Part shown: piece after piece, positions 3,627-60,859 of the stretch
How positions within the stretch are numbered: the stretch's first letter is position 1
How the letters are laid out: the number at the start of each line of letters is the position of its first letter
Assembly: GCA_934168005.1 (NCBI GenBank)
Contig: CAKPMN010000002.1
Coordinates: 13,876 to 77,875 of the forward strand
Direction of reading: 5' to 3'
Source of the DNA: an uncultured Bacilli bacterium
GTDB taxonomy: Bacteria; Bacillota_I; Bacilli_A; RF39; UBA660
DNA: 64,000 nt
Notes under the pieces: generated by a model
Told to the model about the DNA's origin: nothing
The model's input: the letters and a program-made list of their open reading frames with translations, nothing else
Databases searched by the model: none
Translations under genes and position numbers: made by a program

Positions 3627-3703
3627 TGGGGCGCTCTGTGGGGATCGAACCCACGCATGCCTGAGTCACAGTCAGGTGTGTTAACCGCTTCACCAAGAAC
3701 GCC
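3627..3703 (-). tRNA. tRNA-His (anticodon GTG)
   Basis: Reverse complement gives a cloverleaf: acceptor GGCGTTC.../...GCGCC-CCA, anticodon loop CTGTGAC, T-loop GGTTCGATCC. Confidence 0.8.
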
Positions 3704-9059: not shown

Positions 9060-9653
9060 ATGGCAGAAAAAAAAGTAAAAACAACAAAATCAGTATCAAG
9101 TAATCAAAACGTTAATATAAGAGAAAATACAACAAATGAATTAAATACAGAAATATTAAATAAAATATTAATTTGTCTATATGCGCTAATAGTAATATTA
9201 GTAGTTAATACAGCAATAATATTACTAAAAAATAATACAGTAACAAAAGACTCAACAACAGAAGAACAAGAAACAACAGAGTATGATGTTAGTATGTTTA
9301 CAAAAGTTACTGCTGATAACTTAAAAGAGGCAATTTCAAAGGACGAAGCACAAATAGTATATGTAGGAAGATCAACTTGTGGATACTGTGTAAAATTCTT
9401 ACCTGTACTACAACAAGCACAAAAAGATTATAAATATACTACTTTATATCTAGATATAACAACAGTTACTACAACTGAACAACAAAATAAGATTTTGGAA
9501 CTTGATAATGAAGATAAATTTTTAAGTGAAAACTTTGGAGGAACTCCAATGGTTCTACTAGTAAAAGATGGAAAAATAGTAGATACATGGATGGGATATT
9601 CTGAATATTCAACATATGCTACATGGCTTGAAAAAAATGGATTTACTAAATAG
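9060..9653 (+). CDS. Membrane-anchored thioredoxin-fold protein with CxxC (CGYC) active site
   Basis: N-terminal TM helix. VYVGRSTCGYCVKFLP thioredoxin motif. Similar to bacteriocin-transport-accessory-type thioredoxins. Confidence 0.6.
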   Translation: MAEKKVKTTKSVSSNQNVNIRENTTNELNTEILNKILICLYALIVILVVNTAIILLKNNTVTKDSTTEEQETTEYDVSMFTKVTADNLKEAISKDEAQIVYVGRSTCGYCVKFLPVLQQAQKDYKYTTLYLDITTVTTTEQQNKILELDNEDKFLSENFGGTPMVLLVKDGKIVDTWMGYSEYSTYATWLEKNGFTK

Positions 9654-9667
9654 TAAATCTTTTTTTA

Positions 9668-10207
9668 TTGAAAAATAATAAGAAAATTGATATTATAAGC
9701 TTGGTGATAAACGTGAATGGTATAAAAAGAATAGAAAATTTAATATATATAGTTATCTTTCTGTTAATTATAAATATTTTCGCTACTATTATAAAAAACA
9801 ATAGCGTGCAAACATCTCAAGGAATAAATTTTGACACATCAATGTTTAAAACTATAAATCTAAAGGATTTAGAAAGTTATATAAATGAAGAAAATTATAA
9901 AGTATTGGTAATAGGAAAAAATAACTGTGAATATACAATAGAAATGCTGCCAATATTAAGACAGGCCCAAGCTAACTATAATTATGAAACCTTATATGTA
10001 GATCAAAATAGTATAACAGAAGATGACAAAAATGTACTACTTAGATATGATGATGAAACAAAATTCATAGAGGAATACATAAATACAACTCCCCTAATAA
10101 TAGTTTTTAAAGATAATAGAATGGTAGATACTTGGGTTGGTTACCAAGAATATTCAGTATTTGAAAAGTTTTTGACAGGATTAGGAATAGAAAAAAAAGA
10201 AAATTAA
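9668..10207 (+). CDS. Membrane-anchored thioredoxin-fold paralog with degenerate active site (CEYT instead of CxxC)
   Basis: Collinear similarity to the preceding ORF (VLVIGKNNCEYTIEMLPILRQAQ.., DTWVGYQEYS). Second Cys replaced by Thr. Confidence 0.55.
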   Translation: MKNNKKIDIISLVINVNGIKRIENLIYIVIFLLIINIFATIIKNNSVQTSQGINFDTSMFKTINLKDLESYINEENYKVLVIGKNNCEYTIEMLPILRQAQANYNYETLYVDQNSITEDDKNVLLRYDDETKFIEEYINTTPLIIVFKDNRMVDTWVGYQEYSVFEKFLTGLGIEKKEN

Positions 10208-10268: not shown

Positions 10269-10357
10269 GCCTGAGTGGCGAAATTGGTAGACGCACAGGA
10301 CTTAAAATCCTGCGGGAGTCAAATCCCGTGCCGGTTCAAGTCCGGCCTTAGGCACCA
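10269..10357 (+). tRNA. tRNA-Leu (anticodon TAA), long variable arm
   Basis: Acceptor GCCTGAG/CTTAGGC-A-CCA, anticodon loop CTTAAAA, T-loop GGTTCAAGTCC. Confidence 0.85.
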
Positions 10358-10366
10358 TAGAAAATT

Positions 10367-10390
10367 AACGGACTTTGTCCGTTTTTCTTT
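10367..10390 (+). terminator. Terminator hairpin AACGGAC-TTTG-TCCGTT plus T-tract after tRNA-Leu
   Basis: Stem-loop followed by TTTTTC. Confidence 0.5.
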
Positions 10391-10427
10391 TGCAAAAATA
10401 CTTTTAATAAAAAAAATAAAAAAACTC

Positions 10428-10456
10428 TTGCCAAACAAAACACAACATGTTATAAT
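10428..10456 (+). promoter_or_regulatory. Sigma-A promoter (TTGCCA-17-TATAAT) for the tRNA-Ser...Pro transcription unit
   Basis: Near-consensus -35/-10 with 17-bp spacer, about 30 nt upstream of tRNA-Ser. Confidence 0.55.
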
Positions 10457-10487
10457 TTGTTATGTAATTGCCACAACTGGTGATATT

Positions 10488-10578
10488 GGAGAAATACCCA
10501 AGTTCGGTTGAAGGGACCGGTCTTGAAAACCGGGAGGTCGGAAACGGCGCGGGGGTTCGAATCCCTCTTTCTCCGCCA
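10488..10578 (+). tRNA. tRNA-Ser (anticodon TGA), long variable arm
   Basis: GGAGAAATACCCAAG... anticodon loop CTTGAAA... T-loop GGTTCGAATCC ... CTCCGCCA. Confidence 0.85.
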
Positions 10579-10587
10579 TTTAAATAT

Positions 10588-10664
<77 letters not shown>

Positions 10665-10665
10665 T

Positions 10666-10742
10666 GGTTCGTTAGTCTAGAGGCCTATGACGTCTGCCTG
10701 TCACGCAGAAGACCACGGGTTCGAATCCCGTACGAACCGCCA
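10666..10742 (+). tRNA. tRNA-Asp (anticodon GTC)
   Basis: Acceptor GGTTCGT/ACGAACC-G-CCA, anticodon loop CTGTCAC, T-loop GGTTCGAATCC. Confidence 0.85.
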
Positions 10743-10750
10743 TTTATTTT

Positions 10751-10826
<76 letters not shown>

Positions 10827-10866
10827 TTTATTTTTGATTAATATTACAATAATTGGTTTGGCAATT

Positions 10867-10943
<77 letters not shown>

Positions 10944-10946
10944 TAT

Positions 10947-11023
10947 CGGGAAATGGCTCAACTTGGTAGAGCACTTGGTTTGGGACCAAGGGGTTGCAGG
11001 TTCAAATCCTGTTTTCCCGACCA
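10947..11023 (+). tRNA. tRNA-Pro (anticodon TGG)
   Basis: CGGGAAATGGCTCAACTTGGTAGAGC, anticodon loop TTTGGGA, ...TTTCCCGACCA. Confidence 0.85.
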
Positions 11024-11033
11024 TTTAGAATTT

Positions 11034-11057
11034 AACGGATATAATCCGTTTTTTTTA
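11034..11057 (+). terminator. Terminator hairpin AACGGAT-ATA-ATCCGTT plus T8 after tRNA-Pro
   Basis: Stem-loop plus TTTTTTTT. Stem sequence related to the hairpin after tRNA-Leu. Confidence 0.55.
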
Positions 11058-11099
11058 TTGCAAAATCAAGTATATTTGGGTAAAATAATAGTATATATT

Positions 11100-11175
11100 G
11101 TTTACATAGCTCAGTTGGAAGAGCATTTCCCTCCGAAGGAAAAGGTCATCAGTTCAAATCTGATTGTAAACACCA
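11100..11175 (+). tRNA. tRNA-Arg (anticodon CCG)
   Basis: GTTTACATAGCTCAGTTGGAAGAGC, anticodon loop CTCCGAA, acceptor TGTAAAC-A-CCA. Own TTGCAA/TAAAAT promoter upstream. Confidence 0.75.
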
Positions 11176-44498: not shown

Positions 44499-44611
44499 AT
44501 GTAAGGATTTTCTTTTGAAAATCCTTGCTTTTTTTCAAAAAGATTGTTATACTATGAAAGTAATTAAATTTCTATGGCCGAATTAGGTCATGGCGGAAGG
44601 AGACTAAAAGT

Positions 44612-53656: not shown

Positions 53657-56263
53657 ATGGAAATATTAAATGGATTAACAGAAGAAGAAGTGCAAGAATC
53701 TATAAAAAAGCATGGAATAAACAAAATAGATTCTAGAGAAGAAACTACATTTTTTAAGAAGTTTATAGAATCTTTAGGAGACCCAATAATTAGAATACTT
53801 TTAATAGCTTTAGGAATAAAATTATTATTTTTGATAAAAGATTTTGATTGGTATGAAACTATTGGAATAGTAATAGCTATATTTGTTGCATCATTTATAT
53901 CAACTATATCAGAGTATGGAAGCGAAAAAGCCTTTATTAAATTGCAAGATGAAGCTTCAAAAATTAAATGTAAAGTTAAAAGAAATAATAAGCCAGAAGA
54001 AATAACTATAGAAGAAGTAGTTGTTGGAGATATTATAAAATTATCAGCAGGAGATAAAATACCTGCGGATGGGATACTAGTAAAAGGTAATATAAGTGTA
54101 GATGAATCATCATTAAATGGAGAAGCTAGAGAAATATATAAAGAACCTGTAAAAAACTATGTAACAGATAAAAATAAGTTATATAGAGGAACAGTAGTAT
54201 ATTCAAAAGAAGGATATATGAAAGTAACAAAAGTTGGAAATGATACAATGTATGGAAAACTCGCAAAAGAATTACAAGAAAAAACAGGAGATAGCCCATT
54301 AAAGATAAAATTAACACATTTAGCTAAATTAATAAGTAAGATAGGATATATAGGAGCCTTCTTAGTAACTGTATCATATCTATTTTCTGTTATCGTAATT
54401 CAAAATAACTTTGAATTAGATAAAATTGTTAGTACATTAACCAATTTTCCTTATATTCTAGGACAAGTTTTATATGCATTAACACTTTGTGTTACTGTAA
54501 TAGTAGTAGCGGTTCCAGAAGGATTACCAATGATGATAACATTAGTATTATCATCAAATATGAAAAGAATGTTAAAAAATAATGTATTAGTACGAAAATT
54601 AGTGGGAATAGAGACTGCAGGTAGTTTAAACATACTATTTACAGATAAAACAGGAACATTAACAAAAGGTAAATTAGAAGTTGTATCATATATCTCACCA
54701 AATTTAAAAGAGTTTTTAAATGAAGCAGAATTATCAAAATATAAAAAATTATACGAATATGTAAAAAATAATATTATTTATAATAATGAATGTGAATATA
54801 GTGAAAATAAATATATAGGTGGAAACATAACAGACAAAGCTTTATTAAAGTTTATAAAGACAGATAAAGAAAAAAAACATAAGATATTAAAAGAAATGCC
54901 TTTTGATAGTAAGAATAAATATTCTTATGTACAAGTGGATATAGAAGGTAAAAAGAAATTTATCAAAGGAGCCCCAGAAAAAATAATAGAATCATCAACT
55001 GAGTACTTAGATGAATTTGGAATAAAAAGAAGATTTATTAATAAAGAAAAAATAAAAGATGAGATAAAGAAATATACCAAAAATGGAATAAGAGTTTTAG
55101 CGTTATCAGTAGATGAACACTATGAACAAAAAGACGGAATAGATAATTCATGTTTTATAGGATTTGCTCTAATAAAAGATGAAATAAAAGAAGAAGCAGT
55201 AGAGGGAGTAAAACTAGTTAATAATGCTGGAATACAAGTAGTAATGATAACAGGAGATAATAAAGATACAGCAATGGAAATAGCTAGAGAAACAAATATA
55301 TTAAAAGAAGATGGGCTAGTATTAACCAGTGATGAATTCAATAAGTTAACAGATGATGAAGTTAAAAAAATATTGCCAAGACTTAATGTATTAGCTAGAG
55401 CATTACCCCTAGATAAAAGTAGATTAGTTAAGCTAAGTAAAGAATTAGATCTTGTGGTTGGAATGACAGGAGATGGGGTAAATGATGCTCCTGCACTAAA
55501 ACAAGCAGACGTTGGTTTTGCAATGGGAAGTGGAACAGAAGTATCAAAAGAAGCAAGTGATATAGTAATACTAGATGACAATCTATTATCAATAGCTAAG
55601 GCTGTATTATTTGGAAGAACAATTTTTAAAAGTATAAGAAAATTTATAATAGTTCAATTGAGCATAAACTTCTGCGCATTAAGTCTATCAATATTAGGAC
55701 CATTTGTAGGAATAAAAACACCAGTAACAGTAGTACAAATGTTATGGATAAATATGGTTATGGATACATTAGCAGGCCTAGCATTCGCATTTGAACCTCC
55801 GCTTTTAGAATATATGAAAGAAAAGCCAAAATCAAAATGTGAATCAATTATTAATAGATACATGGCTTCATCAATTATATCGACAAGCGTATATGCTTCA
55901 ATATTATGTTTTATATTTTTAAAGCTACCATATCTAAGAACTATTTATCAAAGTAATGAAAGACTCATGACAGCATTTTTTGGATTATTTATATTTATTG
56001 ATATATTTAATAGTTTTAATGCCAGAACTAGCAGAATAAATATTTTTGCCAATATATTGAAAAATAAAATATTTTTAGGAATTATTATTTTTATAGCGGT
56101 AGTTCAAATATGTATGATATATTTTGGAGGAGAAGTATTTAGAACAACAGGATTAACTTTCTATGAGTTACAGATAATGATTTTGATTGCCGCAACAGTA
56201 ATACCTATAGACTGGATTCGTAAATATATTTACAAAAAAGTTTACAAGACAATAGGTGTATAA
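53657..56263 (+). CDS. Calcium-translocating P-type ATPase (PMCA/SERCA-like)
   Basis: DKTGTLT phosphorylation motif, TGDN, GDGVNDAPALK, 10 TM. Confidence 0.9.
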   Translation: MEILNGLTEEEVQESIKKHGINKIDSREETTFFKKFIESLGDPIIRILLIALGIKLLFLIKDFDWYETIGIVIAIFVASFISTISEYGSEKAFIKLQDEASKIKCKVKRNNKPEEITIEEVVVGDIIKLSAGDKIPADGILVKGNISVDESSLNGEAREIYKEPVKNYVTDKNKLYRGTVVYSKEGYMKVTKVGNDTMYGKLAKELQEKTGDSPLKIKLTHLAKLISKIGYIGAFLVTVSYLFSVIVIQNNFELDKIVSTLTNFPYILGQVLYALTLCVTVIVVAVPEGLPMMITLVLSSNMKRMLKNNVLVRKLVGIETAGSLNILFTDKTGTLTKGKLEVVSYISPNLKEFLNEAELSKYKKLYEYVKNNIIYNNECEYSENKYIGGNITDKALLKFIKTDKEKKHKILKEMPFDSKNKYSYVQVDIEGKKKFIKGAPEKIIESSTEYLDEFGIKRRFINKEKIKDEIKKYTKNGIRVLALSVDEHYEQKDGIDNSCFIGFALIKDEIKEEAVEGVKLVNNAGIQVVMITGDNKDTAMEIARETNILKEDGLVLTSDEFNKLTDDEVKKILPRLNVLARALPLDKSRLVKLSKELDLVVGMTGDGVNDAPALKQADVGFAMGSGTEVSKEASDIVILDDNLLSIAKAVLFGRTIFKSIRKFIIVQLSINFCALSLSILGPFVGIKTPVTVVQMLWINMVMDTLAGLAFAFEPPLLEYMKEKPKSKCESIINRYMASSIISTSVYASILCFIFLKLPYLRTIYQSNERLMTAFFGLFIFIDIFNSFNARTSRINIFANILKNKIFLGIIIFIAVVQICMIYFGGEVFRTTGLTFYELQIMILIAATVIPIDWIRKYIYKKVYKTIGV

Positions 56264-56329
56264 TGACTAAATGTCGGTAAAAATTTGAAAAAATCTTAAA
56301 ATAGTGTATAATCAATATGAGGTGGTAAT

Positions 56330-56887
56330 ATGATTTACCTACATAATGACTTTACAAAAAGAGGATATAAAGATTATCATGTAAAAAGATTAGTAAAAGA
56401 AGGTAAACTTTATTTCATAAAAAAAGGAGTTTATTCAACAACAAAAGAGATAAACTATCTTGAATATATTACAAAAAAACATCCAAATGGAGTATTAGAT
56501 TTATGGACAGCTGCATACTGTTATGGATTTATAAAAGAAAATAAAGAACCTTATGTAATAGCTACTAAACAAAAAGATAGAAAAATTAAAGATGAAAAAA
56601 TAAAACAAATATTTATGACAGATGAACTCCATTCATTGGGATTAAATATTTTAAAGCATGATAAACTTATGCTTCAAACTTTTGATATTGAAAGATTACT
56701 TATAGAAGTAGTAAGAAATAAAACAAATATAGAATACGATACTTATAAAGAAATTATAGAAAGCTATAAAAAGATAGCTAGAGTTCTAAATAAAAGAAAA
56801 CTTCAAACATATCTTCCATATTTTAAAGATAAAAGAATACAGGAAAGAATCGAAAAAGAAGTATTTTTAAATAATATAGACAAATAG
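56330..56887 (+). CDS. Hypothetical protein, possibly AbiEi-antitoxin-like N-terminal domain
   Basis: VKRLVKEGKLYFIKKGVYS resembles the AbiEi N-terminal motif (L-x-K/R-x-G-x-L-x-R-I-x-R-G-V-Y). No adjacent AbiEii-like gene. Confidence 0.35.
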   Translation: MIYLHNDFTKRGYKDYHVKRLVKEGKLYFIKKGVYSTTKEINYLEYITKKHPNGVLDLWTAAYCYGFIKENKEPYVIATKQKDRKIKDEKIKQIFMTDELHSLGLNILKHDKLMLQTFDIERLLIEVVRNKTNIEYDTYKEIIESYKKIARVLNKRKLQTYLPYFKDKRIQERIEKEVFLNNIDK

Positions 56888-56995
56888 TGAAAAGTCACTA
56901 TTTGTAATAGCAAAAATAATATACAAGCTTTGCAAAACAAAGCTTTTTTATTGAAAATAAATGCTAAAAATGTTAATATTAATTAAGGTGAGTTT

Positions 56996-57706
56996 ATGAA
57001 GTTTGTAGTGTATGATGACCATAAGGAATTTAGAGATACAATAGAAAGTATCATTAAAAGTTTAAACTATGAAGATTCAATAATAAAACTATATAGTAAA
57101 TACGATGAAAAACTAAAAGAAGAAATAAAAAATGATCAAAAGAAAATTTATATTCTAGATATAGAAGTGCCAAATAGTATATCAGGTTTAGAGTTAGCTA
57201 GAAAAATAAGAATGACAGACTGGAAAAGTGTTATCATAATGGTAACATCACATAATGAATTAGGTTATGAAGCATTAAAATCACAAATAATGTTATTAGA
57301 TTTTATATCAAAATTTAGTCCGACATGGAAGACAAATTTAAAAAACACAATAAAGAAAGCTATGAATAAAACTAAAGAGATACCAGTCTTAATTTTAGAA
57401 ACACCAAACATGATATATAGAATTTATACAGATGATATTTTATATATCTTAAGAGATCAAGTAGAAAGAAAATGTAAAATTAAAACAATAAATGATGAAA
57501 TATATTTTCCAAAGAGTATTAAAGAGTTTAGTACTTTATTAGATGATAGATTTTTCTTAAGTCATAGAAGCTGTTATATAAATTTAAAACAAGTTAAGAA
57601 AGTAGATTTTAAAAAATTGAGAATATATTTTAATAATGGTGAATTTATAGATTACTTATCAAGAGATAAAAAGAAGGAATTGAAAGAGTATGTTAGAAAT
57701 AATTAG
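56996..57706 (+). CDS. agrA: LytTR-family response regulator (AgrA-like)
   Basis: N-terminal receiver (ILDIEVP) and C-terminal LytTR DNA-binding domain (LSHRSCYINLKQV). Confidence 0.8.
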   Translation: MKFVVYDDHKEFRDTIESIIKSLNYEDSIIKLYSKYDEKLKEEIKNDQKKIYILDIEVPNSISGLELARKIRMTDWKSVIIMVTSHNELGYEALKSQIMLLDFISKFSPTWKTNLKNTIKKAMNKTKEIPVLILETPNMIYRIYTDDILYILRDQVERKCKIKTINDEIYFPKSIKEFSTLLDDRFFLSHRSCYINLKQVKKVDFKKLRIYFNNGEFIDYLSRDKKKELKEYVRNN

Positions 57707-58976
57707 TCATTTTTTATTAGCGATAGTAACTTATTTTATGAATTGCTATATGTATTGCAAGATAAATAAAAAGAAATTTCAAATAACACCAAAATTAATA
57801 ATATTTGTAGTATTTGTCGCTATGATAAATACTTATAGTCGCCAACACTATAATTCTACAATAGACCTAGTTATTAGTAATTTAGAATTAGTTTTTTTAC
57901 TAAAATATATTTATAATGAGTCAATAATAAAAGTAATAGTTTCAGTTTTGATTATTTTAATTTTATACACATTAGGTGAATTAGTATATGCTCTAATAAC
58001 AATATATATTTTACAAATAGAAAAATTAGCTTTAACAGAAACAATATCAGGACATTGTATAACTAACCTGTCTATTTTAGCTATAGTATTGTTACTTTCT
58101 AAAAACAAAAAGATAATGGCAATATCCAATAAGATTATCAATTGGCAAAAGGATAATAAATATATAAATACTACATTATTAGTTGTTTTAGCTTTTATTA
58201 CTTTAGCGGCTTTATTATATCCAATATCTACAAATTCAAATTCTCCAAGTAGTACATTTTTATTTGTATTATTCATATTATGTACAATAATATTTGTAAC
58301 TGGATTCTTTAATGAAAAGTCAGAAAATAATAAACTTAATGAAAATTATGATACATTAATAGATTATTTAAAAGTATATGAAAAAGAAATAAATGAGAAG
58401 TCAAAATTACAACATGAGTTCAAAAATCAATTGATATTAATAAAAGAGATGGATACATCTAAAAAGGTAAAAAACTATATATCTAATTTACTTGGAGAAG
58501 ATGAAGAAACTCAAAACAAGTTATTATTATCTTCATTAAAAGATGTTCCAAATGGTGGGCTAAAGGGTCTTATATATTATAAGTTAAATCATTTATCAGA
58601 AGATGTTGAATTACATATTCATGTTGGAAGTGATATTGATCAGAAAGTTTGGGATAAGATAAATTTGAATGACGCAAGTAAGATAGTTGGTATATTACTA
58701 GATAATGCGATTGATGCGATAAATAAAGAAGATAAAAAATATTTAGTTTTAGATTTAGACGAGTGTGATGATAATCTTATATTTACTGTATCAAATTCGT
58801 GCACTAAAAAAATAGATTTTGATAATTTAGATAAAGAAGGCTATTCAACCAAAGGTAAGAATCATGGATATGGATTACCTCTTTTGAACGATATAATAAG
58901 AAAAAATAAGAATGTAAAAATTAAAAGAGAATTAAATGGAATAATGTTTTCTACAAAAATATATATGAAGATATAA
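57690..58976 (+). CDS. agrC: AgrC-like membrane sensor histidine kinase (HPK10 subfamily)
   Basis: Six or seven N-terminal TM helices. H-box HEFKNQL. GHKL ATPase motifs NAIDA, GYGLPL. Confidence 0.8.
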   Translation: MLEIISHFLLAIVTYFMNCYMYCKINKKKFQITPKLIIFVVFVAMINTYSRQHYNSTIDLVISNLELVFLLKYIYNESIIKVIVSVLIILILYTLGELVYALITIYILQIEKLALTETISGHCITNLSILAIVLLLSKNKKIMAISNKIINWQKDNKYINTTLLVVLAFITLAALLYPISTNSNSPSSTFLFVLFILCTIIFVTGFFNEKSENNKLNENYDTLIDYLKVYEKEINEKSKLQHEFKNQLILIKEMDTSKKVKNYISNLLGEDEETQNKLLLSSLKDVPNGGLKGLIYYKLNHLSEDVELHIHVGSDIDQKVWDKINLNDASKIVGILLDNAIDAINKEDKKYLVLDLDECDDNLIFTVSNSCTKKIDFDNLDKEGYSTKGKNHGYGLPLLNDIIRKNKNVKIKRELNGIMFSTKIYMKI

Positions 58977-59068
58977 AAAGAAGCCGTAATTGGCTTCTTT
59001 AACTTTTAAAGTAAAATAGTTGGAATTTACTTTATTTAGTTTGTTATGGATTATTTAAGATTTTAGGA

Positions 59069-59188
59069 CTATTTTTCAATTATGCTTCTAGGCATTTCTG
59101 GTTCATCTAGCCATAGCATTATACAACCTACATTTCCACCAATACCTAACCCAGCAATACTTTTTAGCACTCTAGCTAAGAAAGACAT
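59069..59188 (-). CDS. agrD: AgrD autoinducing-peptide precursor (39 aa), not in supplied ORF track
   Basis: Minus-strand ATG at 59188 with AAGGAG RBS. MSFLARVLKSIAGLGIGGNVGCIMLWLDEPEMPRSIIEK has amphipathic leader, single Cys, and acidic tail with Pro. Lies 16 nt downstream of agrB. Confidence 0.7.
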   Translation of the reverse strand: MSFLARVLKSIAGLGIGGNVGCIMLWLDEPEMPRSIIEK

Positions 59189-59204
59189 AGCACCACTCCT
59201 TCCA

Positions 59205-59810
59205 TTAAAAGTTTAAACCATATGTCTTATAGTTATTGTAACTATGATTAAACATATGATAAGTAATAGGAAGTATTAAAATAACTTCAATAATCATTCC
59301 AAACAAAATCAAATTAGATAAGACATAATCTTTCATGAAAAGTATTATTAGCGATAGCAGTAGAGCACTAATAAAAGCTTTTCTTTTTTTTAGTAAACGT
59401 TTTTCCAATCTAATTATAGGAGCCTTTTTTGTATCTGCGGGTGCATATATGAATATACATATTAGACAGATACAAATAAGAAGAAATTTTAAAATTATTG
59501 ATATTTTGATGATTTTCCCAATATAAGAAGAAAAAAGAAACAAAGCAGAAGAAGCAATCAAACAACTAAAGCTATTAGAAGCATGCATTCCACATGCATA
59601 TTTTCTTATGAGGTTAAATGCTATTAAAACAATTATGAGCTCTTTAAATATTCCAAGCAATAATGCTATTGGAAATATAACAATAGTTTTTTGTATTGTT
59701 AAGTAAACTCCTTCCAATCCGTATCGATATTCATCAAGTTCAACATCAGTAATATTTGGATTATCATTTTTAATGACCCCAAGAGCCATTGATAAAAATT
59801 TCAACTTCAT
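59205..59810 (-). CDS. agrB: AgrB accessory gene regulator protein B (AIP-processing membrane peptidase); probable start at internal Met MKLKFLSM
   Basis: Polytopic membrane protein with AgrB-family conserved region (KYACGMHASNSFSCLIAS). Confidence 0.75.
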   Translation of the reverse strand: MKLKFLSMALGVIKNDNPNITDVELDEYRYGLEGVYLTIQKTIVIFPIALLLGIFKELIIVLIAFNLIRKYACGMHASNSFSCLIASSALFLFSSYIGKIIKISIILKFLLICICLICIFIYAPADTKKAPIIRLEKRLLKKRKAFISALLLSLIILFMKDYVLSNLILFGMIIEVILILPITYHMFNHSYNNYKTYGLNF

Positions 59811-60014
59811 CCTATCACCAAAAACATAGTAACACAAAAAATTTTTATAATTACGATATCGGTCTCTAATGTAAAAAAGCAAGTTTCAATTGAAAAAACA
59901 AATAAATAAAATTAAAAAAATATACATTTAAGACATAAATATTAACGTTTCGAACAAATCCTATTGTTAACTCAAAATAAAATTGGTATATTTATTAAAT
60001 CAAGGAGGTACACC

Positions 60015-60263
60015 GTGGTAGGGAAAGTAAAATGGTTTAATGATAGAAAAGGATATGGATTTCTAACAAACGAAAAAAACGAAGACATATTTGTTCATTT
60101 TACCACAATAAAATCAGAAGGTCATAGAACACTTATTCAAGGCGAGAAAGTTGAATTTACTTTAGTTGAAACAGAAAGAGGACTACAAGCAAAAAACGTT
60201 GTTGAAAAATCTGTTATTAGAGACTTAGATGAAGAATCCTGTGAATTAAGCAAGGAGCTATAA
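60015..60263 (+). CDS. csp: Cold-shock protein (CspA family) with short C-terminal extension, GTG start
   Basis: GKVKWFNDRKGYGFL (RNP1) and VHFT (RNP2-like). GGAGGT RBS 5 nt upstream of GTG. Confidence 0.85.
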   Translation: MVGKVKWFNDRKGYGFLTNEKNEDIFVHFTTIKSEGHRTLIQGEKVEFTLVETERGLQAKNVVEKSVIRDLDEESCELSKEL

Positions 60264-60331
60264 ATTCATAAGGATTTTTTTATTGAAAAAAATAAAAAAT
60301 ATGATATACTTAAAGTAGAAAGGATGATCTT

Positions 60332-60859
60332 ATGAAAATGAATATTCGTGGCAGTAAATTAGATGTAACATCTGCCATCCAAACATATGCTGAAAAGAAA
60401 ATAAGTAAACTAGACAAATACTTTTCTAATTCAGAAGAATTAACAGCAAATGTTTTAATTAAAACACATGGAGAAAGGCAAATTGTAGAAGTTACAATAC
60501 CAGCTAACAGAATGATTTTAAGGGCAGAAGAGTCAAGCGATGACTTATATAAGTCAATAGATTTAGTCTCAGAAAAACTTGAAAGACAAATCAGAAAAAA
60601 TAAAACAAGAATGAAACAAAAACGAAATATTCCAAATGTAACTATGTTTGTAGACTTTGATACAGAAGAAGAACAATCAGAAGAAATGGTTACAAAAAGA
60701 AAAGTTGTTGATTCAAAACCAATGAGCGAAGAAGAAGCTATTCTTCAAATGAATTTAATAGGACACGATTTCTTCATTTTTAGAAATGTTGATACAACAA
60801 CAGACTGTGTTATCTATAGAAGAAAAGCAGGAGATTATGGATTAATAGAAATAAAGTGA
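60332..60859 (+). CDS. hpf: Ribosome hibernation promoting factor (long HPF)
   Basis: MNIRGSKLDVTSAIQTYAEKKISKLDKYF and C-terminal dimerisation domain. Upstream of secA as usual in Firmicutes. Confidence 0.9.
   Translation: MKMNIRGSKLDVTSAIQTYAEKKISKLDKYFSNSEELTANVLIKTHGERQIVEVTIPANRMILRAEESSDDLYKSIDLVSEKLERQIRKNKTRMKQKRNIPNVTMFVDFDTEEEQSEEMVTKRKVVDSKPMSEEEAILQMNLIGHDFFIFRNVDTTTDCVIYRRKAGDYGLIEIK

Follow-up and report, generated by a model that had tools for sequence, protein, structure and literature searches.

Does the short open reading frame (ORF) that follows agrB in an uncultured gut bacterium encode the precursor of a cyclic signal peptide, and are the two regulatory genes facing it from the opposite strand its receptor system? 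The question arises from a stretch of 64,000 nucleotides, hereafter the window, of contig CAKPMN010000002.1 (assembly GCA_934168005.1), which derives from an uncultured human-gut member of the class Bacilli with a GC content of 27.7%. The original prediction for this stretch had described a minus-strand ORF of 39 amino acids (aa), preceded by an AAGGAG ribosome-binding site and located 16 nt past agrB, as an unannotated AgrD precursor, and both its coordinates and its translation were reproduced here. Our comparisons indicate with high confidence that the ORF is AgrD and that the adjacent AgrCA pair is its cognate receptor system, while the locus as a whole very probably makes up a complete agr-type system for peptide quorum sensing. 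Gene identities, catalytic residues, the conservation of and selection on the ORF, the repeat motif upstream of agrB, and the co-variation of ring and sensor are all drawn from sequence comparison. In its general design, the agr locus here is an expected variation on a well-known system and entails no new mechanism.

Since the surrounding 9-kb stretch contains 47 ORFs of at least 30 aa, the length of a 39-codon ORF is by itself no proof of function, and the evidence against a chance occurrence is comparative. An AgrB profile search yielded 80 loci from other species, all uncultured gut genomes labeled Bacilli, Tenericutes, Mollicutes, Clostridium sp. CAG:594, CAG:302 or CAG:762, Ca. Aphodocola, or Ca. 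Scybalousia. The window's species is absent from these 80 representatives (best AgrB identity 50%), so that its taxonomic placement relies on how the relatives are labeled, and their AgrB proteins are 38–52% identical to that of the window by tblastn. The window, eight contigs of the same species, and 78 of the other-species loci provided 87 scored copies; the only two unscorable loci have just 79–107 nt beyond the agrB stop codon. An ORF of 34–42 aa with a Shine-Dalgarno site lies directly 3' of agrB in all 87 copies with enough sequence, and it is intact in every related locus examined that retains agrB. The resulting 79 distinct peptides, 77 of them from other species, share a common design, in which a leader of 16–24 residues is followed by a single Cys, a variable hydrophobic stretch of five residues, and the follower DEPxMPKSxIEK. 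This design bears out the acidic, Pro-containing C-terminal tail that had been described for the window. Residues C22 (the single Cys of the window AgrD), D28, E29, and P30 are invariant or nearly so among them. At the codons of the invariant Cys, Asp, Glu, and Pro, the first and second positions are constant among 77 distinct sequences and the third varies by 0.35–1.1 bits, and such variation at third positions only argues for selection on the translated product. The NCBIfam AgrD model TIGR04223 is matched by 78 of the 79 distinct peptides (best E 1.7e-10). The amphipathic leader was likewise recovered, with a maximum hydrophobic moment (muH) of 0.69 for residues 1–11, a value reached by approximately 1% of shuffles. 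One part of the earlier description needs correction, namely that the ORF was unannotated and below the size cutoff of the ORF caller. Public callers already predict it: the exact 39-aa peptide is present, unnamed, in a public protein collection from 18 contigs (sources NCBI, ENA, and Logan). The identical four-gene layout is found in eight same-species human-gut metagenome contigs, and the 39-aa gene is called on all eight.

The top NCBIfam match of each of the four locus proteins is the corresponding Agr model. AgrB matches Pfam PF04647 with 121.2 bits (cutoff 23; E 4.3e-35), and its hydropathy profile, with several hydrophobic segments, is that of a multi-pass membrane protein. Residues R69, G74, H76, and C83 are invariant in an alignment of 22 homologues and correspond to R70, G75, H77, and C84 of Staphylococcus aureus AgrB, the roles of which have been described (PMC10196373); the catalytic-residue stretch of the window protein reads LIRKYACGMHASNSFSC. 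The start of agrB is ambiguous, as the longest ORF begins at TTG 59882, the original prediction used ATG 59810, and public callers use TTG 59804 (199 aa); the exact 201-aa version is absent from the protein collection. No AgrB homologue was found in the phage collection, and no solved AgrB structure was found. AgrC exhibits at least five hydrophobic peaks within residues 1–207, followed by H242 within KLQHEFKN, and it matches Pfam HATPase_c_5 (E 3.4e-13). Among solved structures, its nearest match is the kinase module of S. aureus AgrC, 6e52 (E 1.5e-14), with HEFxN aligned to HDYxN. AgrA matches the Pfam domains Response_reg (E 1.7e-10) and LytTR (E 3.7e-15), and its PDB matches are ComE, the best, and the AgrA LytTR domain. 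An overlap of 17 nt between agrA and agrC places the two genes in one operon.

Natural variants of the locus provide an indirect link between the peptide and the receptor. Within the peptide's 90% cluster, most differences between variants are in the ring. One locus (L097) belongs to the window's own species, with Hpf and Csp 100% identical, AgrB and AgrA 99% identical, and flanks at least 99% identical at the nucleotide level. Its ring is CVHLWL, two substitutions away from the CIMLWL of the window, and while the kinase half of its AgrC is 98% identical to that of the window, identity over sensor residues 1–180 is only 47%. Nucleotide identity between the two alleles falls to 52–72% only in 57701–58200 and is 94% in 59101–59200. 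A sister lineage, in which Hpf is 95%, AgrB 79%, AgrA 81%, and the kinase domain 72–73% identical to those of the window, carries the rings CIMLWL (L100), CVHLWL (L089), and CMHFWL (L101). When sensors are compared between the two lineages, identity is 68% if both carry CIMLWL (window and L100) and 65% if both carry CVHLWL (L097 and L089), versus 41–49% for any mismatched ring pair. Whereas the kinase domain, AgrB, and AgrA cluster by lineage, the sensor clusters by ring. Co-variation of the AgrC sensor with at least three ring types (CIMLWL/CIHLWL, CVHLWL, and CMHFWL) across two sister lineages provides strong indirect evidence that the predicted ring is the ligand of the adjacent receptor. 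Such an allelic receptor/ligand polymorphism in an uncultured gut lineage is a new finding and the most interesting by-product of the analysis.

What form the signal takes depends upon where AgrD is cut. In S. aureus, Cys84 of AgrB cuts AgrD between Met32 and Asp33, Asp33 and Glu34 are essential for this cleavage, and Arg70, Gly75, and His77 of AgrB are also required (PMC10196373). Among the 87 copies examined here, the spacing Cys-x5-[DE]E is found in 82; three further copies conform if the count starts at the first of their two Cys residues, and the last two have six residues. This conserved spacing, taken together with the S. aureus cut directly before Asp33-Glu34, leads to a six-residue ring, CIMLWL, and the AgrD ring is probably six-membered as judged from this homology. 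The original prediction had counted four residues after the Cys to give the core CIMLW and is probably off by one, since five residues separate Cys from Asp-Glu. Its proposal, a five-residue thiolactone CIMLW with or without a tail, cut between Trp26 and Leu27 as in staphylococci, Listeria, and C. perfringens, would still be an AgrD product, and we consider it the less likely form, though one that deserves attention. Six-residue rings are described as rarer than five-residue rings (PMC10301443, PMC12312760), and among characterized autoinducing peptides (AIPs) five-membered rings are far commoner (PMC10301443). Ring position 5 is also always hydrophobic and could on that account be part of the follower. 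However, its variability (2.95 bits) is like that of the other ring positions (2.4–3.3 bits), whereas the follower is conserved, with approximately 0 bits at Asp-Glu-Pro. The CIMLW form also sits poorly with an S. aureus cut immediately N-terminal to the essential Asp33-Glu34, given that the Asp-Glu is invariant here and the Cys-x5 spacing applies to 85 copies once first-Cys counting is admitted. Furthermore, six-residue AIPs without an N-terminal extension have been established experimentally in Clostridium acetobutylicum and Ruminiclostridium cellulolyticum (CWFWSY) (PMC8251862, PMC10301443), and these convert spontaneously, S-to-N, from a thiolactone to a homodetic cyclopeptide (PMC8251862). 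At the other end of the predicted ring, 71 of 77 peptides have G or A at position -1 before the Cys and 67 have T or S at position -3, and small residues at these positions suggest leader removal directly before the Cys. The mature peptide could thus be both tail-less and homodetic, a proposition for which we see the chances as nearly balanced.

Taken jointly, these observations lead to a tentative and somewhat more doubtful proposal, in which a single human-gut species and its sister lineage would maintain at least three mutually specific, matched types that predate the lineage split, as a trans-lineage balanced polymorphism, and tail-less homodetic cyclic hexapeptides would carry cross-talk or interference between strains in the gut. 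With agrC inverted, the ligand- and sensor-coding islands are not contiguous and have approximately 0.9 kb of conserved kinase-coding DNA between them; the hypervariable block of S. aureus is contiguous, starting in the 3' part of agrB, spanning agrD, and finishing in the 5' part of agrC. If the proposal is true, the islands must stay matched across the intervening kinase-coding DNA. Between same-species alleles, the kinase-coding part of agrC that separates the variable islands (58301–58900) is 95–98% identical compared with at least 99% in the flanks, which is consistent with hitch-hiking or linkage of matched ligand and sensor segments. In practical terms, cyclic CIMLWL, CVHLWL, and CMHFWL are synthesizable candidate signals with matched receptor alleles, and they might help to cultivate or manipulate these organisms.

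The regulatory sites of the locus suggest how such a circuit would be wired. A two-half-site expectation-maximization (EM) motif model, fitted in 78 loci to the 250 nt that precede agrB, recovers AAA[T/G]GT[A/C]A-TTTTT repeated at 21-bp spacing, with a score of 1020 at 21 bp versus 749–884 at 19, 20, 22, and 23 bp and approximately 575 for shuffled sequence. The motif occurs between -140 and -160 in approximately 48 of the 78 loci. In the window, the predicted site is located between agrB and csp, starting 140 nt before the agrB ATG, and ranks first among 127,932 positions on both strands (score 17.0, leave-one-out model). As far as can be judged from its sequence, this 21-bp direct repeat has the geometry of LytTR regulator sites. 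The second-best site in the window lies inside the ORF 9060–9653 and was set aside as probably a chance match due to its location within a coding region; this ORF and its neighbor 9668–10207 are adjacent membrane-anchored paralogues with similar C-terminal halves. No LytTR repeat was detected upstream of agrA (median score 3.7 versus 3.4 for shuffled sequence; 5.5 in the window). A candidate promoter precedes agrA, and two terminator-like hairpins lie upstream of that promoter. On balance, we favor a circuit in which AgrA-dependent feedback acts on agrBD only, and agrAC is likely to be transcribed independently. There is no sign of an RNAIII-like RNA: no Rfam family reaches its gathering score in 56000–60400, the divergent neighbor is a cold-shock protein gene, and an Rfam scan of the whole window returned tRNAs and an L31 leader only. 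The agrB-csp intergenic region is 204 nt in the window versus approximately 265–360 nt in most relatives, and 14 nt separate the end of the predicted AgrA site from a promoter-like match that would serve the divergent csp. As a consequence of this short intergenic region, the AgrA site is near the csp promoter match and AgrA might also influence csp in the window's species.

The convergence of agrA and agrC (plus strand) upon agrB and agrD (minus strand) is real and clade-wide, as agrC is on the opposite strand and converges on agrD in 72 of 72 informative other-species loci, and agrA is also on the opposite strand in 68 of these; in the remaining 8 of the 80 loci, the contig ends before agrC. 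What does not stand is the significance originally attached to the layout, since the 72 relatives as well as Clostridium plasmids share it. It is not special and is already present in annotated genomes. Separate agrBD and agrCA operons are a recognized clostridial variation (PMC12312760, PMC10301443), and our literature search found no text explicitly discussing convergent agr loci; the Gray 2013 review and the C. difficile diversity and phiCDHM1 papers offer nothing of use on strand orientation. Between the convergent stop codons lies a hairpin, which is a terminator for agrBD with its T-run on the minus strand and, since it directly abuts the agrC stop codon, probably ends agrAC transcription as well. 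The stop-to-stop gap in related loci has a median of 42 nt and a median minimum free energy of -10.4 kcal/mol, with a stable fold in most. Conceivably, the layout could be regulatory in its own right: agrBD read-through, antisense to the 3' end of agrC, would lower receptor expression and add a negative feedback or switch that is absent from co-directional agr operons. Strict conservation of the layout, the short gap, a T-run that is good on the agrBD strand only, and a feedback site confined to agrBD all speak for this model, but a stable hairpin between the genes in most loci fits plain bidirectional termination, and conservation of gene order within one clade may reflect inheritance only. 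Consequently, we regard antisense control as improbable. In 61 loci, the csp-hpf-secA block is divergent from agrB, which points to vertical inheritance of the locus at a fixed chromosomal site.

Two further explanations dispense with AgrD altogether. Pairs of an HPK10 kinase and a LytTR regulator also serve Com, Blp, and Pln systems, the best PDB match of the regulator is ComE, and the window peptide contains GIGG, all of which could bring to mind a double-glycine pheromone or bacteriocin precursor (ComC/BlpC/PlnA-like) that is cut after Gly17-Gly18 to release the linear product NVGCIMLWLDEPEMPRSIIEK, with no need of an AgrB-made ring. We consider this a very remote prospect, because the Gly-Gly is unconserved (other members have ATSG, GTQG, or GTKA there), the locus has no C39-peptidase ABC transporter, and the peptide is always coupled to agrB and carries an invariant Cys with an AgrB-type acidic follower. 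An untranslated chance ORF in the AT-rich spacer between agrB and the kinase gene, a notion to which the abundance of short ORFs and the sub-cutoff score of the window peptide (see below) lend some color, is effectively refuted by the comparative data, in that position, length, and Shine-Dalgarno site persist in all 87 copies even at 38–52% AgrB identity, only third codon positions vary at the invariant Cys, Asp, Glu, and Pro, and nearly all homologues match the AgrD model.

Returning to the interpretation of the locus as a complete agr system, a plausible sequence of events can be outlined, in which the points of cleavage, the chemistry of the finished peptide, the logic of the feedback, and the regulon further downstream are inferred. 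Firstly, agrB and agrD would be co-transcribed from the minus strand, and AgrD would attach to the membrane via its amphipathic leader. AgrB, through its catalytic Cys83 with His76, Arg69, and Gly74, would recognize the acidic Pro-containing follower, cut between Leu27 and Asp28, and join Leu27 to the Cys22 thiol to yield the six-residue macrocycle CIMLWL. A second protease would then remove the leader directly before the Cys, and the thiolactone of the tail-less peptide would probably convert to a head-to-tail cyclic hexapeptide, a rearrangement demonstrated for clostridial AIPs. Secondly, the extracellular peptide would bind the polytopic sensor of AgrC, which would autophosphorylate on His242 and pass the phosphate to AgrA. 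AgrA would presumably bind the 21-bp-spaced repeat upstream of agrB and raise agrBD transcription, thus exerting positive feedback on the signal, while agrAC would be expressed from its own promoter lacking the repeat and a shared hairpin would separate the two convergent transcription units.

Several points weigh against this interpretation: 1) all of its support is comparative, 2) the window AgrD reaches 14.9 bits (E 0.022) against TIGR04223, which is under the cutoff of 19 bits, 3) AgrC scores 70.7 bits and does not reach the 500-bit cutoff of the staphylococcal AgrC equivalog NF046015, while AgrA scores 69 bits versus an AgrA equivalog cutoff of 400 bits, such that both are far below staphylococcal cutoffs and are Agr-like proteins as opposed to orthologues of proven function, 4) the ring size is deduced from the homology of the Asp-Glu cleavage signal, 5) the sensor accompanying CIHLWL is 96% identical to that accompanying CIMLWL, so not every ring change is matched in the receptor, and 6) the repeat motif is AT-rich, derives from our own EM model, and is clear in only approximately 60% of loci, while no promoter elements can be assigned with confidence downstream of it. 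With regard to AgrD, the 19-bit cutoff is an operational threshold and not a biological feature, and the window copy is simply a low-scoring member of the AgrD family. Being under the NCBIfam cutoff, it is likely prone to a "hypothetical" label. For annotation, this means that members of this AgrD subfamily can fall just below the curated model cutoff and that ring size is better read from the Cys-to-Asp-Glu spacing than presumed to be five.

Table 1. Coordinates of the agr locus and of other features discussed in the text (positions in the window).
Feature	Position	Strand	Description
agrD	59069..59188	minus	putative 39-aa autoinducing-peptide precursor, translation MSFLARVLKSIAGLGIGGNVGCIMLWLDEPEMPRSIIEK
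AgrD leader	residues 1-21	minus	
AgrD predicted core	C22-L27, codons 59108-59125	minus	CIMLWL
AgrD follower	D28-K39	minus	DEPEMPRSIIEK
agrD Shine-Dalgarno	59196..59201	minus	AAGGAG, 7 nt before ATG, 3 nt past agrB stop
agrB	59205..59810	minus	predicted membrane cysteine peptidase/cyclase processing AgrD, 201 aa from ATG 59810; gap of 16 nt from end of stop codon (59205) to agrD ATG
Predicted AgrA (LytTR) site	59917..59950	minus	13-nt half-sites AAACGTTAATATT and AAATGTATATTTT, starts 21 nt apart
agrA	56996..57706	plus	predicted response regulator, receiver + LytTR DNA-binding domains, 236 aa
agrC	57690..58976	plus	predicted AIP receptor histidine kinase, 428 aa
AgrC sensor	~residues 1-205	plus	polytopic
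agrC hypervariable stretch	~57701-58200	plus	
AgrC H-box	H242	plus	followed by GHKL ATPase domain
Candidate agrAC promoter	56951..56979	plus	sigma-70-type, TTGAAA-17-TAATAT, TG before second hexamer; consensus match only
Terminator-like hairpins (two)	56880-56945		upstream of candidate agrAC promoter
Hairpin	58977..59000		AAAGAAGCC-AATTAC-GGCTTCTTT, between convergent stop codons, abuts agrC stop codon
csp promoter-like match	59964-59992		
AbiEi-like ORF	56330-56887	plus	185 aa, just upstream of agrA
Second-best LytTR-like site	9302-9335	minus	score 14.8
tRNA cluster	10269-11172	plus	nine tRNAs
tRNA	3630-3702	minus	
L31-Firmicutes leader	44572-44602	plus	

When examined next to known agr systems, the locus bears a likeness to the C. 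acetobutylicum type, including R. cellulolyticum Rc-AIP1 (CWFWSY). Both have a Cys-x5 core with an acidic Pro-containing follower and a predicted six-residue ring, agrBD and agrCA form separate transcription units in both, neither possesses an RNAIII-like effector, and a tail-less peptide able to become a homodetic cyclopeptide is likely in both (PMC8251862, PMC10301443, PMC12312760). In contrast, the C. acetobutylicum type is written agrBDCA, and CA_C0082 comes directly after agrCA, whereas the units of the window converge and no homologue of the LanM-like CA_C0082 adjoins them. The hosts differ as well, being Clostridia in the former case and uncultured gut Bacilli here. An identical convergent layout, with a GHKL kinase and LytTR regulator opposite agrBD, is found on two RefSeq plasmids of cultured organisms, Clostridium estertheticum pCEST-001C and C. 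tagluense pCM022-183. Their AgrD is of the same subtype (…TQA-C-IAYAL-EEPKMPKSLL…) and is named "AgrD family cyclic lactone autoinducer peptide" by PGAP, while the window peptide is unnamed. However, the plasmid AgrB is approximately 36% identical and the plasmid loci adjoin radical-SAM/SPASM and ABC-transporter genes, as opposed to the chromosomal csp-hpf-secA setting of the window.

The S. aureus system has in common with the window the four proteins, the catalytic residues, and the Asp-Glu cleavage signal (PMC10196373), as well as a LytTR direct repeat of approximately 21-bp periodicity upstream of agrB. S. aureus specificity groups I–IV also resemble the alleles of the window's species, in that changes of the AgrD core go together with divergence of the AgrC sensor, and the kinase domain and AgrA remain conserved (PMC8919982). 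The polymorphic agr proteins of S. aureus are AgrB, AgrD, and AgrC (PMC8919982), whereas in the window's species AgrB is 99% conserved between alleles and lies outside the polymorphism. The S. aureus genes form one co-directional agrBDCA operon under P2 feedback, unlike the opposed units and repeat-free agrA upstream region of the window, and the system has a five-residue ring with a 2–4-residue tail and a divergent RNAIII effector. Clostridioides difficile R20291 agr2 is reported to have a "reverse order", agrACDB, with a single transcript suggested (PMC3754575). Like the window, it includes all four genes in an order other than agrBDCA and has no RNAIII (PMC3754575), but its AgrD is 46 aa and of another subtype. 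Our literature search found neither the follower motifs (DEPKMPKS and similar) nor a paper on agr in RF39 or this gut Bacilli clade. With these results, a large clade of gut Bacilli that are uncultured, low in GC, and publicly labeled Bacilli, Tenericutes, or Mollicutes gains a well-supported agr system.

Some minor features of the locus and its surroundings are also worth recording. Downstream of agrBD, receptor modules are duplicated in certain relatives, two of which have two tandem agrC genes and one of which has two agrC-agrA pairs, which suggests multiple receptors for one peptide locus. A further relative has an extra agrA-like gene upstream of agrB. The neighbors of the locus are an AbiEi-like gene, a P-type ATPase, csp, hpf, and secA. 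The ORF just upstream of agrA is full-length AbiEi-like (PADLOC PDLC02238, E 1.2e-41); Pfam gives a weak AbiEi_4 match only, and no AbiEii toxin gene is found alongside. By tblastn, it lies near agrA in the window itself, in 7 contigs of the same species, and in 15 loci of other species, which makes 23 copies, and it could be an orphan regulator of the antitoxin type with a link to the agr locus. More than five metagenome-assembled genome records titled "uncultured Muribaculaceae bacterium" carry a csp-hpf-secA-agr block of the Bacilli type, and their SecA is 66–78% identical to that of the window, such that these taxonomic labels look wrong. The tRNAs and the L31-Firmicutes leader are ordinary features, which place the window on the chromosome of a member of the Bacillota.

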